The notes under the pieces are model-generated. The model saw nothing but the letters and a program-made list of their open reading frames with translations. It searched no databases and had not been told where the DNA came from. This document shows positions 39,982-45,499 of a DNA stretch of 64,000 nucleotides, piece by piece. This stretch comes from Candidatus Latescibacterota bacterium. GTDB taxonomy: Bacteria > Latescibacterota > UBA2968 > UBA8231. Each line of letters starts with the position of its first letter. The stretch's first letter is position 1. The stretch is from contig CBDAOB010000003.1 in the NCBI GenBank assembly GCA_965197905.1, positions 992,001 through 1,056,000 of the forward strand, given 5' to 3'. Both the position numbers and the translations under genes were made by a program.

Positions 39982-42177
39982 TTGCCGACGAATCAGTTCT
40001 TTGCTACGACCTCGAGAGGAACGGAGCCGCTTCTCGCTGCGGAATTGCCCGCCCTGGGAGCAGCATCTGTATCGTCAGGTCGCTCGGGCGTTTCCTTCGA
40101 AGGCGGGATGGAGGTGGCGTATCGAGTCTGTCTCTGGTCGCGTTTTGCTAGCCGCGTACTGATGCCGTTGAGTGGCTTCGCGGCCGCTACGCCCGAGGAT
40201 CTGTATGCCGGAGTCCGCACCATCGACTGGTCCCAGCACATTTCAGCTGACGGGACGCTGGCGGTCGATTGTCATTCCGCGGAATCGCACATCGATCATA
40301 CACATTTCGCCTCCTTGAAGGTGAAGGATGCCATCGTCGATCAGATACGGGAAGCTTCCGGTATCCGGCCGTCGGTAGACCTCCAGCGACCTGACCTGCG
40401 GGTAAACCTCTACCTCTATCGCAACGAAGCCACCGTCAGCATCGACCTGGCCGGCGAGGGATTACACAAACGGGGATACCGCCTACACGGTGGCCAGGCG
40501 CCGCTCAAGGAGAATCTGGCTGCCGCTATTCTGGCGCGCGCCAACTGGCCGGAGATCGCCGCGGCTGGCGGCGGACTGATCGATCCCATGTGCGGGTCGG
40601 GAACCCTCTGCATCGAAGCCGCCATGATGGCCGCCGATATCGCTCCCGGTTTACGGCGGAGCTACTTCGGATTTCGTCGGTGGAAAGGGTTCGATGCTGA
40701 GCTGTGGGAAACGCTGCTGGAGGACGCAAAGAAACGTCGGTTAGAGGGACTCCCCAAACTTCCGCCGCTGCTGGGTTGCGACATCGATCCAGATGCTGTG
40801 CGCCTCGCACAGGCAAACGTAGATCGTGCAGGCCTTGGTGGAATGGTGAAGATCGAACAGTGCGAACTAGCCAACGCCACACCAGAAAAAAGCTCGAGCG
40901 ATGGCGCTGGGCTGCTGGTCGCTAATCCACCATACGGCGAACGCCTTGGTGAACAGAAAACGATCGAGCCGTTGTATGCTCGGCTCGGAAGCACCCTCAA
41001 GGCGCATTTCGGCGATTGGCAGGCTGCCGTGTTTACCGGAAATCCCAAACTGGCCGGGGCGCTGCGCCTGCGGCCGCACCGCAGCTATTCGCTCTACAAT
41101 GGGCCGATCAAATGCCGTCTGTTGTGCTTTTCCATAGGTCCGACTGCCCCCGCTCACGACGGAGGGCACCGTGTCGATAGCGAGCCTGGGGTGCAGACAA
41201 AGGCGTCCTCGACCTCGAATACCGGTTGTGAAATGCTGGCTAACCGACTGCGAAAGAACCTGCGTATCAAGAAACGCTGGTCGCGCCGCGAAGGGATTAC
41301 CTGTTATCGGCTCTACGACGCCGATCTGCCTGAGTACGCCTTTGCCGTGGATCTGTATCAAGGGGAGGAGCTTTACCTGCACGTTCAGGAGTACGAGCCG
41401 CCGGTCTCGGTGGATTCCGAACGCGCGGAGCGCCGGCGCGAGGAAGGACTGCAAACGATCGCGGCAGTACTGGAGGTGCCGTCGTCGCGAATCTACTTCA
41501 AGATGCGGCGGCAACAAAAGGGCACGTCACAGTATGACCGCCAGGGGGCCACGGGTGGGTTCATGGAGGTCGCAGAAGGCAGCTGTCGATTCTGGCTAAA
41601 CCTCTCGGATTATCTGGACACCGGTTTGTTTCTCGATCAGCGTCTCAGCAGGCGACTAATCCAGCAGAGAATCGGGGGCGGACGTTTCCTGAATCTATTC
41701 GGTTACACCGGTACTGCGACCGTTCATGCAGCCGTCGGGGGTGCGGCGTCAACTACGACCGTCGATATGTCGAATACCTATCTGGACTGGGCGCGGCGCA
41801 ATTTGGAGCTGAACAACTGCACTGGCGAGAAGCACGAGCTGATTCGCGCTGACTGCATCGAGTGGTTACAGGATCCGGGTGTGAGGAAGACCCGAAGATT
41901 CGAGATGATATGGCTCGATCCGCCCACCTTTTCGAACTCCAAAAGGATGGATCGTGAGTTCGATGTGCAGCGGGACCACGTGGAGTTGATCCGCAACACG
42001 GCTCGCCTCCTTACAGCTGGTGGCGTCATCTTTTTCGCCACGAACTACCGCCGCTTCAAGCTTGACGAAGCAGCCTTGACGGGGCTGAAGGCCAAGGACA
42101 TCTCCGCAGCCACTCTACCACAGGACTTTGAGCGTAGGAAGCGGATGCACAACTGCTGGGAACTCACGGTAGGTTGA
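39982..42177 (+). CDS. rlmKL: Bifunctional 23S rRNA m7G2069/m2G2445 methyltransferase
   Basis: THUMP region, LHKRGYR..APLKENLAA, DPMCGSGT, NPPYGER, second MTase YLDTGLFLD, LNLFGYTG and DPPTFSNSK. Confidence 0.95.
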   Translation: MPTNQFFATTSRGTEPLLAAELPALGAASVSSGRSGVSFEGGMEVAYRVCLWSRFASRVLMPLSGFAAATPEDLYAGVRTIDWSQHISADGTLAVDCHSAESHIDHTHFASLKVKDAIVDQIREASGIRPSVDLQRPDLRVNLYLYRNEATVSIDLAGEGLHKRGYRLHGGQAPLKENLAAAILARANWPEIAAAGGGLIDPMCGSGTLCIEAAMMAADIAPGLRRSYFGFRRWKGFDAELWETLLEDAKKRRLEGLPKLPPLLGCDIDPDAVRLAQANVDRAGLGGMVKIEQCELANATPEKSSSDGAGLLVANPPYGERLGEQKTIEPLYARLGSTLKAHFGDWQAAVFTGNPKLAGALRLRPHRSYSLYNGPIKCRLLCFSIGPTAPAHDGGHRVDSEPGVQTKASSTSNTGCEMLANRLRKNLRIKKRWSRREGITCYRLYDADLPEYAFAVDLYQGEELYLHVQEYEPPVSVDSERAERRREEGLQTIAAVLEVPSSRIYFKMRRQQKGTSQYDRQGATGGFMEVAEGSCRFWLNLSDYLDTGLFLDQRLSRRLIQQRIGGGRFLNLFGYTGTATVHAAVGGAASTTTVDMSNTYLDWARRNLELNNCTGEKHELIRADCIEWLQDPGVRKTRRFEMIWLDPPTFSNSKRMDREFDVQRDHVELIRNTARLLTAGGVIFFATNYRRFKLDEAALTGLKAKDISAATLPQDFERRKRMHNCWELTVG

Positions 42178-43043
42178 ATCTTGCCAAATACATTTGATGT
42201 AGTGGTAGTCGGTGCCGGCATCGTAGGTACGTTTCATGCCTATTTCGCGGCGCAGCGCGGCCTCAAGACGCTACTGCTCGACCGGGACCCGGCGCCGCGG
42301 CAGGCGACGGTGCGCAACTTCGGCATGATCGTCACCGGGACGATTGCGGCGCCGGGAGAGTGGGATGGTTTCGCGCGGCGAACCAATGAGCTGTATCGGC
42401 AACTGGGCGACGAAAGTGAGAAAGACCTCACTATTCGACCCCGAGGTTCGCTTTACGTCGTCGAGACCGAGCTGGAGGACCGCGTAATCAGAGAGTTCGC
42501 CGATCTATCGTCTTCTCTGGGAAAACGCGCAGAGTACCTTTCCGCAGCAGACATGACCAAAAGCTATGCCTTCGTAGACCCCGAGTACGCTCGTGGCGGG
42601 TTGCTCTTTCCCGACGATATGGGCGTTGACCCCAGACGTTTCATTCACCTGATCCTTGAACAGCTTTCGCGCGACAAGGACGTTACCTTCAAACCCGATA
42701 CCTGCGTCGTCGGCATCGAAGCTGAGGCCGGCGGCTGTAAGGTGACCGATAGCTCGGGCAATCAGCTTTCGTGCGGTCGGGTTGTGGTGTGCAGTGGTAT
42801 CGAATACCGCATCTTATATCCGGATTTCTGTCGCGAGAGCGGCATGGAGATCTGCAAGATCGACATGCTGAGAACGGAAGCCCAGACCAACCTCGACCTG
42901 CGTCACAACATCCTCTCCGGGCTCTCGGTGCGTCGTTATCCCGGTTTCGAGGTCTGCCCATCTTACGAAAAATTGAAGGCGGCCCCGATCGGGCAGGAAT
43001 ACCAAGAGTGGGGTATTCATCTGCGCAATCAGTGTTTTAGGGC

Positions 43044-43072
43044 TTGACATTCAGTCCCTTGTTTGTTATCTT
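43044..43072 (+). promoter_or_regulatory. Sigma70-like promoter for the transposase, -35 in the left TIR
   Basis: TTGACA-N17-TATCTT with extended TGn. Confidence 0.65.
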
Positions 43073-43107
43073 AAGTATAAGAAAAACAACCAATAAGGGA
43101 GCGGAGA

Positions 43108-43989
43108 ATGAACTTGATAACCGTGACAGAGAGATTTCCGACGCAAGAATCCTGCATTGCTCATCTGGAGCAGGTCCGCTTCGGCAATGAGCCGTTTTGT
43201 CCCTTGTGCGGCACGGTCGGGGAGTGCGCCCGCAAGAAGGAAGGGAATAGAATCGGGCGCTGGAACTGTCACGCCTGCAAGGCCAGCTTCAATGTCTTGT
43301 CCAAGACGATGTTTCAGGGCACGCATCTTCCCTTGCAGAAGTGGTTCTGCGCCATCGCCCTGATCGTGAACGCCAAGAAAAGCCTGTCCAGTTGCCAGCT
43401 TGGCCGTGACTTGAACCTGAATCAGCGCGCCGCCTGGTACATGCAACAGCGCATTCGGGCTGAAATGGCTACCAAGCAGGGAAGAATCAGGCTAAGTGGA
43501 ATCATCGAAGCCGATGAGGTCTATTTGGGCGGGCGCCCCAGGAAGCGCAACAGGCGCGATGACGACAAGTCCAACCGCAGAGGACGAGGAACGCGCAAGA
43601 CCGCGGTTATCGGCGCTGTGGAGCGTTCAGGGAAGGTTGTGGCCGAAGTCGCCGACGATCTGTCCAGTAGGGGCGTGCTCGCCTTTATCAAGCGCGCCAT
43701 CGATCCTGACGCCTCGACGCTGGTTACGGACGAATACGGAGCTTACAACGCGGTGCGGCGGATCATGGATCATTGTGTGATTCAGCATTCCACGCACTAC
43801 GTCGATGGCGCGCTCCACACAAACACGATAGAAGGCGTCTGGTCCCTGCTCAAGCGCGCCTGGTACGGATCGCATCACCACTACACGAAGCAATACACGC
43901 CGCTTTACGTGGCCGAGGCTTGTTTCAAGTACAACCACCGCAAGAACGATAACACCTTCTATTCTTTTATCAAGGAGTGCTTTGCATAG
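43108..43989 (+). CDS. IS1595-family (ISXO2-like DDE) transposase
   Basis: Zn-ribbon CPLC..CHAC, IIEADEVY, LVTDEY and HTNTIEGVWSLLKR. Confidence 0.95.
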   Translation: MNLITVTERFPTQESCIAHLEQVRFGNEPFCPLCGTVGECARKKEGNRIGRWNCHACKASFNVLSKTMFQGTHLPLQKWFCAIALIVNAKKSLSSCQLGRDLNLNQRAAWYMQQRIRAEMATKQGRIRLSGIIEADEVYLGGRPRKRNRRDDDKSNRRGRGTRKTAVIGAVERSGKVVAEVADDLSSRGVLAFIKRAIDPDASTLVTDEYGAYNAVRRIMDHCVIQHSTHYVDGALHTNTIEGVWSLLKRAWYGSHHHYTKQYTPLYVAEACFKYNHRKNDNTFYSFIKECFA

Positions 43990-44001
43990 GGAATTACATA
44001 C

Positions 44002-44223
44002 ATGAATAGACAGGACGGCGGAAAACTGAAACCTGGCTGGAGGGAGGGGATCGAGCGTTTGATCGAGAGAGATCAGCTAACCGAAACCGATGGAACCCTT
44101 CCCGGGACGTTCGAGGATGCTGACTCTTTCTACGAGAGAATGGACCAGATCTTCAAGGCGCTTGAGTTGGGCTTCGAGCGCATCAATGCGCTCCGCAAAG
44201 CCGCCGGTCTCCCATCCCTCTAA
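44002..44223 (+). CDS. IS passenger, small hypothetical protein (73 aa)
   Basis: ATG 12 nt after the transposase stop. Helical composition. Overlaps an antisense ORF. Confidence 0.45.
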   Translation: MNRQDGGKLKPGWREGIERLIERDQLTETDGTLPGTFEDADSFYERMDQIFKALELGFERINALRKAAGLPSL

Positions 44224-44334
44224 CTCTTTCAATTTTTCAATCACGGCAAGTTTCTCGGTTACTGAAGTCACGGCTGAAGAAACCAGGTGCTTTAATTCAA
44301 ATATTATTTCCTCTTTGGTTTTATCGTTTGCCAT
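44077..44334 (-). CDS. IS passenger, coiled-coil protein ending in IGFG (85 aa)
   Basis: RBS aaggag. Heptad-like RIDALEAQLKRLEDLVHSLVERVSILE. Confidence 0.65.
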   Translation of the reverse strand: MANDKTKEEIIFELKHLVSSAVTSVTEKLAVIEKLKELEGWETGGFAERIDALEAQLKRLEDLVHSLVERVSILERPGKGSIGFG

Positions 44335-44359
44335 GATGCGCTCCTTTTAATGTGAAAGG

Positions 44360-44719
44360 CTATTCCGATGACTCAACCGCCACCCGATGAGCGCGAACCT
44401 CAGCAAGTATTTTCTGTTGAATCGGTTCCCCAAGAAAGTGTAGAACGGATTCTGCAAGGCGTACGAGATCTTGCTTCTCTAATTGAAAGAGAAGCGCATG
44501 AGGCTTTTCCCGAGTGTAGTGAACAAATATCAGGACACTTCCATTCGAGGCTTCTGTCCATAGAAGGTTATTACACTCGAAACAGTATACACCTGCTTCA
44601 CGAAGTGCTTCGATGGTGGAAAGGTCGGCATGATGGGAGTCCTCACTACAGGGATCCCTTACCAGGGGTTGGAGAAGTTCCTTAACGAGGTTTTCTATGC
44701 GCTGTGAGTCCTGGTCCAT
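44360..44719 (-). CDS. IS passenger, hypothetical protein (119 aa)
   Basis: RBS aggag upstream. Co-directional and closely spaced with its neighbours. Confidence 0.6.
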   Translation of the reverse strand: MDQDSQRIENLVKELLQPLVRDPCSEDSHHADLSTIEALREAGVYCFECNNLLWTEASNGSVLIFVHYTREKPHALLFQLEKQDLVRLAESVLHFLGEPIQQKILAEVRAHRVAVESSE

Positions 44720-44797
44720 TTGCCGCTCCTATCGGTTCACCGGTTGCTATATCCAAAACACTCCCGGAAGTGATCGTAAAGAGTCGCTTCATTTAGT

Positions 44798-45013
44798 TCA
44801 TTTTAATGGTCCAAGAATCCGAGAGCCCCGGTTTTTACCACGCAATCGCCAAACGTCCCCGGTTTTGGTGTCCAGCACGCAGGTGTCTTTCAAAATACCC
44901 CGAAACCGGCCAATTTCCCCTTTTTCTAGCTGGTTCACCACCAGAAAGACAGAAACCACCAAAGCCGCGGCCACAATTAAGGCCTGCACAATCTGGATTA
45001 TTGGGTCTTTCAT
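44798..45013 (-). CDS. IS passenger, small membrane protein (71 aa)
   Basis: MKDPIIQIVQALIVAAALVVSVFLVV TM helix followed by LDTKTGDVW. Lies just downstream of the right-TIR promoter. Confidence 0.6.
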   Translation of the reverse strand: MKDPIIQIVQALIVAAALVVSVFLVVNQLEKGEIGRFRGILKDTCVLDTKTGDVWRLRGKNRGSRILGPLK

Positions 45014-45029
45014 AATTAGCTTTCGGCGG

Positions 45030-45058
45030 AGGATAGCGATGTTCAGGCGGGAAGTCAA
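45030..45058 (-). promoter_or_regulatory. Sigma70-like promoter for the passenger genes, -35 in the right TIR
   Basis: Minus strand TTGACT-N17-TATCCT, 16 nt upstream of ATG 45013. Confidence 0.6.
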
Positions 45059-45499
45059 GCCCTAAAACACTGATTGCGTTCATCTGTTGTTCAAACAGGC
45101 GGACGACAGCACCCTAATCATTGGTGACTCTCATCAGTATTTTCCACTCAGTGAACCAACTGGATTCGACAATCATGCCGAGGTGCGGGACGCGATCCTT
45201 GCGTACGGAAAGCGCATCGTACATCTGGACAACTGGTCCATCGGCAAGTCCTGGGCGGGTTACGTCATGAGCCACCCCCACGAAGATGCAGTGGTTGGCC
45301 AGGTAGCTCCTTCCGTTCATGTGGCCCTGGGGATTGCAGGGAAGGGAATGAGCACCGCGCCCGGATTCGCGCAGGCGAACATCGCGCGGATTCTGGATAT
45401 CACATAACGACGACGTGGCTTGCGCCTCCCACGTTGCACATGAATTTTGATCACAGGCAAAAAGAACCGTCACCAACCAATCACAAAGGGGGAAGCAAC

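Follow-up and report, generated by a model that had tools for sequence, protein, structure and literature searches.

A recently inserted IS1595-family transporter element whose left arm is conserved and whose right arm is mosaic, with predicted inward promoters at both terminal repeats

The 64,000-nucleotide stretch of DNA analysed here (the window; positions 992,001 to 1,056,000 of contig CBDAOB010000003.1 of a Candidatus Latescibacterota bacterium) carries at 43024..45078 a 2055-bp transporter insertion sequence (tIS) of the IS1595 family that has been inserted recently. Its left arm is shared with relatives and its right arm is a mosaic. Our preferred account, which we consider probable, is that two promoters, one at the inner edge of each terminal inverted repeat (TIR), face inward and that between them they are likely to transcribe the cargo.

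The 25-bp left TIR (43024..43048, plus strand; positions 1-22 are the family core) and right TIR (45054..45078, minus strand) are complementary at 25/25 positions, and the whole element is flanked by the 8-bp target-site duplication (TSD) TTCATCTG at 43016..43023 and 45079..45086. It interrupts a plus-strand gene for a TIGR03364 (HpnW-like) flavin adenine dinucleotide-dependent oxidoreductase, the 5' part of which lies at 42181..43023 and the 3' part at 45087..45407, matching the profile at positions 2-271 and 272-364, respectively. Excision in silico of the element with one TSD copy yields a single open 387-codon frame. The disrupted gene is the best TIGR03364 match of the window's own 6.7-Mb genome (G000), and its counterpart is uninterrupted and above cut-off in both of the same-genus genomes searched. 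(Loci are designated by L-numbers and sequencing runs by X-numbers.) A contig of run X3 joins 43015 directly to 45079 and so represents the precise empty site (depth 5; its short side has just 22 letters; likeness setting 90), which suggests that the insertion is polymorphic in the X3 population. Since X3 may be the source sample, the empty site is not independent support; the split host gene together with apparent polymorphism in one run marks the process as recent. Mobilisable tIS of the MTnSag1 type have a circular intermediate and an oriT mobilised by a conjugative element; no end-to-end joint of the window element is present among the listed run contigs, which by their nature cannot show its absence.

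The transposase gene (43108..43989, plus strand; 293 amino acids, aa) is uninterrupted, and its product exceeds the cut-offs of PF12762 (129 bits), PF12760 (31.8 bits) and NF033547 (181 bits). An ISXO2-like DDE transposase with an N-terminal zinc ribbon, TIRs of ~25 bp and an 8-bp target duplication are what places the element in IS1595; the nearest relatives of the transposase are in Candidatus Latescibacterota records. Between the transposase and the right TIR lie passenger genes with no role in transposition, four open reading frames (ORFs) with homologues, three of which have coding-type substitution patterns. Transposase and cargo move as a unit: the TSD surrounds all 2055 bp, the X3 empty site lacks all of them, and a sister element is present twice, at 99.6% identity, with different TSDs. 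A preliminary description of this DNA had called the element intact and its insertion recent, on the strength of the perfect TIRs and the TSD, and all of this holds. So does its statement that some IS1595 members carry passengers: tIS such as MTnSag1 and tISCpe8 have 25-bp TIRs, 8-bp duplications and passenger genes (PMC5704250).

That description had also proposed searching with the TIR and comparing cargo between copies; the comparison shows cargo that varies behind a conserved left arm. The survey comprised 140 stretches (134 loci and six from G000): 81 with a TIR pair, 58 without a left or right end and one without a transposase match. The 81 pairs give 54 distinct right ends, to which one own-genome element was added by hand, making 55. 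G000 contains no second copy of the window element. It contains four TIR-bounded relatives whose first ~960 bp are 87-90% identical to the window element; beyond the transposase stop they have essentially nothing in common with it. A further element in G000 is more distant. Left TIR, promoter motif and transposase (the ~960 bp) are common to the sister elements and similarity ends at the transposase stop; the two TIRs of one element differ by a mean of 1.3 mismatches vs 6.2 between elements. The relatives' TIRs start with CGGAAT, like ISNha5-type ends (an ISfinder subgroup); the TIR of the window element starts with CGCAATC. An N6/N4 DNA methyltransferase is the commonest cargo in the family, and the relatives' cargo includes methyltransferases, an HsdR N-terminal domain, a Panacea antitoxin, DUF5678, MT-A70, an exonuclease and nested insertion sequences (ISs). 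Any Pfam match at all was found for 15/82 scanned cargo ORFs (81 chosen among 119 non-methyltransferase candidates, and one methyltransferase).

Some of these relatives deserve separate mention. The 99.6% identical pair among the four in G000 consists of L014 (C2:362986-365180) and L017 (C3:784944-787144), which carry an 85-aa ORF ahead of a retropepsin-like ORF (DTGA motif) that is broken by a frameshift in each copy, as well as what is left of a methyltransferase N-terminus; in L068, a DUF5678 gene precedes a similar DTGA protein. The sister element at C5:1661331-1664753 of G000 is 3.4 kb long, has no clean TSD and carries a minus-strand 532-aa predicted lipoprotein-like ORF; past the transposase stop it looks, by eye, like an IS1-type end. 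G000 also has truncated pieces of transposases of this family at C4:35538-35946, C4:2147899-2148314 and C5:1469689-1470311, those on C4 being near opposite ends of the contig. L085 and L089-L092 are family members of 1028 bp that share the TIR type, carry no cargo and lack a right promoter. An IS (IS1595, IS5, IS256, IS66 or IS3-like) is nested in the cargo of L115, L088, L098, L119, L144, L151 and L160.

The right arm of the window element had been described as a unit of three minus-strand genes. Those three ORFs, of 71 (44798..45013), 119 (44360..44719) and 85 aa (44077..44334), are indeed present, and AGGAG ribosome-binding sites (RBSs) precede the 119- and 85-aa genes as claimed. The inventory omitted a plus-strand ORF of 73 aa (44002..44223) and a relic TIR, and the single cargo unit gives way to a mosaic with this fourth gene and a foreign end. 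The four genes do not travel together; their neighbours differ in relatives. The relic (43989..44012, plus strand) reads as the right TIR of a second IS1595 subfamily, here called B, whose transposase is 30% identical to that of the window; it starts GGGAATTA, as ISNwi1-type ends (another ISfinder subgroup) do. It is identical at 22/24 positions and is the only match at up to five mismatches in G000; the B TIR pattern occurs at nine places in 7/168 genomes and its reversed control at none. In the complete B elements L187 and L188 the 73/85-aa pair lies just inside the right TIR; three other B ends are without the pair. Compared with L187, the window has an 18-nt deletion in which the customary start of the 73-aa gene is lost; where the TIR otherwise has GTG, an in-frame ATG stands here, so that the relic supplies the start codon. 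Further along, the block at ~44324-44762 shows 82.6% identity with L067 and L115; in those two loci its RBS stands before a different gene. A cargo-deletion variant skipping 44057-44389 is seen in run X3 (depth 6). Since it combines the relic TIR of another subfamily with an antisense 73-aa gene, the cargo is chimeric, and it is likely to be read from both ends. The relic and the 73/85 pair may have come by nested insertion and subsequent deletion; the second TSD copy expected of a clean nested insertion is absent from the window and speaks against so simple a history. Capture of local host DNA was considered and dropped: 0/5 own-genome cargos match elsewhere in G000.

The 73- and 85-aa genes overlap in antisense and in register for 49 codons (147 nt, 44077-44223). 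Outside the overlap, the N-terminal block belonging only to the 73-aa gene has its variable columns distributed 4/2/10 of 12 by codon position (six sequences) and a ratio of nonsynonymous to synonymous differences (pN/pS) of 0.21, vs 0.65-1.97 in the five other frames. Two blocks belonging only to the 85-aa gene yield 0.37 (four sequences; the window, with a different N-terminus, left out) and 0.36 (five sequences, window included), and within the overlap the values are 0.42 and 0.81. Both frames of this antiparallel pair appear in these small blocks to be under purifying selection. The pair also lies within an IS1-type element (L186) and, inverted and frameshifted, in the sister element L170; the 73-aa family occurs near an unrelated IS1-type end, 300 bp away, with an AGGAGG and an ATG.

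On another reading, the 73-aa ORF would be a mere shadow frame cast by the 85-aa gene, or a DNA signal conserved at B ends, which would leave the cargo a simple operon of three minus-strand genes. Antisense frames in register frequently stay open by chance (P ~0.5 with host codon use), the 73-aa N-terminus is absent from L166, which does have the 85-aa gene, and L170 carries a frameshift, as just mentioned. A similar 105-aa plus-strand frame under the 119-aa gene, tried as a second case of dual coding, was rejected as a shadow: it shows no purifying selection (pN/pS 0.83-2.71 in six pairs). What makes this reading unlikely for the 73-aa ORF is that its conserved GGKLKPGW block, situated past the stop of the 85-aa gene, changes chiefly at third codon positions, and that the GGKLKPGW family recurs near the IS1-type end and, with another partner, in L184. 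Dual coding of the pair therefore seems to us well supported by the substitution patterns; our estimate is held short of certainty because the blocks are short (4-6 sequences) and were chosen for being alignable, and because of L166. It also counts against the pair that, by eye, no clear promoter for the 73-aa gene is apparent in the B elements.

In L184 (G012:C85:20496-20690) a second ORF of this family, with the motif GGRLKPGW, lies within a B element beside a DNA methyltransferase and overlaps a different antisense ORF. A contig of run X5 covering 43845-44358 has 29 differences from the window and a 9-nt insertion, and so represents a further allele of the 73/85 cassette; among the changes listed, the two in the part belonging only to the 73-aa gene are both synonymous.

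None of these small proteins could be assigned by family and fold searches, Foldseek included; the preliminary description, too, had called the cargo unrecognised. The 85-aa protein, modelled as three helices (mean predicted local distance difference test score, pLDDT, 79.8) with coiled-coil character, has five database relatives and matches in four other genomes among 168; only 1/49 genomes reached through other loci holds its family, and no relatives were found in viral contigs. Foldseek found no match to the model at E<=0.001, which does not amount to a new fold, and a profile search with its 10-row alignment returned only scattered coiled-coil matches. It ends in IGFG, and 7/10 aligned rows have an IGF or LGF tail; presumably this resembles the ClpX loop that docks on ClpP. 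No 73-aa match was found in plasmids, and a complex prediction for the 85- and 73-aa proteins (score 0.01) is evidence neither way. The 119-aa protein has two database relatives and paralogues in sister elements; its model is poor (pLDDT 56.8, best Z 3.9) and shows no new fold. Its frame is under purifying selection in 6/6 pairs (pN/pS 0.48-0.86), and must therefore have been expressed somewhere. The 71-aa protein has an N-terminal hydrophobic helix (mean Kyte-Doolittle 2.92), on which it is taken to be membrane-anchored, and a single relative with the same start and helix; an alignment search of the 168 genomes matched only G000.

The possibility raised earlier of a defence or addiction role, under which the cargo would be an operon devoted to anti-phage or toxin-antitoxin function, has in its favour the company that the cargo keeps: sister elements hold the methyltransferases, HsdR N-terminal domain, Panacea antitoxin, DUF5678 and MT-A70 already listed. 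We nevertheless think it doubtful: none of the five window cargo ORFs matches PADLOC 2.0 at E<=1, none reaches a curated Pfam or NCBIfam cut-off, no toxin-antitoxin family was matched in Pfam/NCBIfam or by the 85-aa alignment searches, and the four genes keep different neighbours in relatives. The best cargo match in PHROGs has E=0.013 and Rfam has none at E<=1. Our best guess is that the small genes are selfish or accessory passengers and that the 73/85 pair is a candidate mutually antagonistic module.

We turn to how the cargo may be transcribed. Both promoter motifs that the preliminary description had pointed out are where it placed them: TTGACA-17-TATCTT facing the transposase (43044..43072, plus strand; -35 at 43044-43049, -10 at 43067-43072) and TTGACT-17-TATCCT facing the cargo (45030..45058, minus strand; -35 at 45058-45053, -10 at 45035-45030), each -35 having 5/6 bases within the TIR. 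The 71-aa gene, which has a short leader and no Shine-Dalgarno sequence, starts with an ATG 16 nt past the right -10. A promoter scan finds four sites vs 1.7 +/- 1.5 in shuffled sequence, which is not beyond chance; support for the promoters is therefore comparative and comes from the 55 elements. The TIR model used to find these spans positions 1-22 only and the invariant TIR core stops at CTT (position 22), so neither -35 nor -10 was selected for. At left ends TTGA occupies positions 21-24 in 47/55 and a TAnnnT -10 follows at 16-18 bp in 41/55; by this sequence pattern, the predicted left promoter is family-wide. Right ends have TTGA in 17/55, and a correctly spaced -10 in 14 of these 17 vs 3 of the 38 others, two of these three with a TTGC -35. 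For the 17 ends with TTGA, scoring at 25 shifted positions gives 0-3/17. Spacers of the right promoters share on average ~5/16 bases (they are identical in L146 and L152). The notion that the inner end of the TIR doubles as a -35 box for cargo is supported where TTGA and -10 go together and fails as a constant of the family, with 38/55 right ends lacking TTGA.

When the right promoter is allowed to start anywhere at positions 21-36 (background 26/1640 windows), it is found with 4/5 antisense methyltransferase cargos vs 1/23 co-directional ones (Fisher p=0.0012, uncorrected for the tree). A cargo ATG lies 6-10 nt past the right -10 in L146, L103 and L104. The distance is 6-7 nt in L146, L151, L155 and L103, which suggests that transcripts from their right TIRs would be leaderless. 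The right end of L145 matches a left-end promoter at 22/30 positions, and L146 and L152 have TIR plus promoter in common for 55 nt and then differing cargo; on these grounds we infer that right ends may arise by re-use or copying of left ends. By eye, the left ends of L058-L060, L142, L187 and L188, which belong to other IS1595 subfamilies, also have TTGAC at or just inside the inner TIR end, with a spaced -10 in L142, L187 and L188.

Several results weigh against a right promoter that serves the cargo. A tree-aware test has five independent pairs, 3.9 of them agreeing in direction, and is not significant (median p 0.125); on the tree, the methyltransferase contrast shrinks to two pairs, with no signal; and the right-promoter label changes eight times on the tree vs 17 in shuffles. 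The promoter is missing in 11/27 elements without a methyltransferase match, some of them with minus-strand ORFs, and minus-strand cargo is found without it in G0c, L095, L086 and L107; L083 has it, yet carries plus-strand methyltransferase pieces. Exact contigs of two RNA runs labelled as sponge metagenome (44385-44629, 245 nt; 44767-44920, 154 nt) hint weakly at cargo expression, and being unstranded could be DNA; no weight is given to the lack of RNA coverage on the host flanks in X1 and X2. We conclude that the right promoter is likely to be real where present, but optional.

One could instead regard the right TTGAC as a by-product of TIR homogenisation from left to right, its -10 inherited or fortuitous and the cargo silent or reached only by host read-through. 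Perfect left/right identity that extends to positions 25-29 in several elements, the clustering of promoter-bearing ends on the tree and the non-significant independent-pair test all suit such an origin. It does not explain why 14/17 ends, with mostly unrelated spacers, should have a -10 at 16-18 bp, and silence is hard to square with purifying selection on the 119-aa gene; we judge it decidedly unlikely. That the right promoter is mainly an antisense brake on the transposase, as pOUT of IS10 is, with incidental cargo ORFs, is more improbable still: it does point at the transposase gene, with no terminators in between beyond chance (five sites vs 3.0 +/- 1.8), but it is missing in 22/23 elements with a co-directional methyltransferase and has ATGs at its predicted start site in three relatives. 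(A candidate terminator at 44767-44790 was dropped, its count being within chance.)

Host transcription may also reach the element. The interrupted oxidoreductase gene starts no more than 3 nt after a 731-aa gene (39982-42177) that we take to resemble RlmKL, which makes read-through into the left end likely. A predicted hairpin (43050..43105, plus strand) pairs the promoter spacer with the transposase RBS; pairing of the RBS is 0.78 in read-through RNA vs 0.41 in the element's own transcript, and the model predicts that the hairpin would hide the RBS only in RNA coming from the co-directional host gene. An RBS-sequestering hairpin as a family-wide trait was dropped (mean pairing 0.53 vs 0.48 in shuffles; 9/49 clear cases).

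In the scheme that we favour, the left promoter would read the transposase and 73-aa genes and the right promoter the 71-, 119- and 85-aa genes, the two transcripts converging over the 147-nt overlap. By analogy with IS1 (PMC12428005), TIR-bound transposase would cover both -35 boxes and so damp both transcripts. The right -35 would arise when a left end is copied onto, or re-used as, a right end, and would be kept where antisense cargo needs it. Cargo would grow as other passenger-carrying ISs insert at the AT-rich 3' end of the transposase gene and deletions follow, the small genes most likely being selfish or accessory passengers from a pool common to several IS families. A bolder version, which we find rather improbable, would make this IS1595 clade an integrase-free platform for gene capture and expression, with a promoter-bearing right end, cassettes acquired by nested insertion and expression of both strands, and the 73/85 pair an addiction or regulatory module that possibly docks on ClpP through the IGF tail of the 85-aa protein.

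The defining paper on tIS, by Siguier, Gagnevin and Chandler (2009), may already note some of these features. The window element is like MTnSag1 and tISCpe8 in its IS1595 DDE transposase, 25-bp TIRs, 8-bp duplication, ~2-kb length, passengers placed after the transposase and (in its relatives) AT-rich targets. It is unlike them in that its passengers are small, unrecognised, mostly antisense and likely driven from the right TIR, and in that cargo differs between 87-90% identical copies, includes another IS end and holds no resistance gene. The IS1 promoter partly overlaps the left inverted repeat, IRL, and is repressed by InsA (PMC12428005, PMC12903888). The window element, from a related DDE family, likewise has its predicted transposase promoter within the left inverted repeat; unlike IS1 as described there, it has a predicted right-end promoter and cargo. 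Machida et al. (1984) reportedly described a promoter that faces inward from the right end of IS1. IS257, of the IS6 family, has -35 boxes at both ends (PMC7986276). A -35 hexamer in both terminal repeats is a shared feature; those of IS257 form hybrid promoters with flanking host DNA, whereas those of the window element face inward with the -10 inside the element. IS1595 tIS, promoters overlapping inverted repeats and -35 boxes at both IS ends are known already. In a literature from which subscription journals were mostly missing, making any negative weak evidence of novelty, nothing came to light about the 73/85 pair or about cargo promoters in the right TIR of IS1595 members; an optional right-end promoter that tracks antisense cargo, a captured end of another subfamily and a mobile antisense pair may, on that weak evidence, be new.

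If the account given here is right, it accounts for the expression, in small tIS, of passengers oriented against the transposase, and indicates that passengers come from the ends of other ISs and not from local host DNA. It makes a testable promoter prediction, confined to 70 bp, at each end of the element. Bacterial cases of two proteins encoded in register by the two strands of one DNA segment are rare; the 73/85 pair, which passes between IS1595 and IS1-type elements, would be one, extending over 49 codons and showing selection on either strand.

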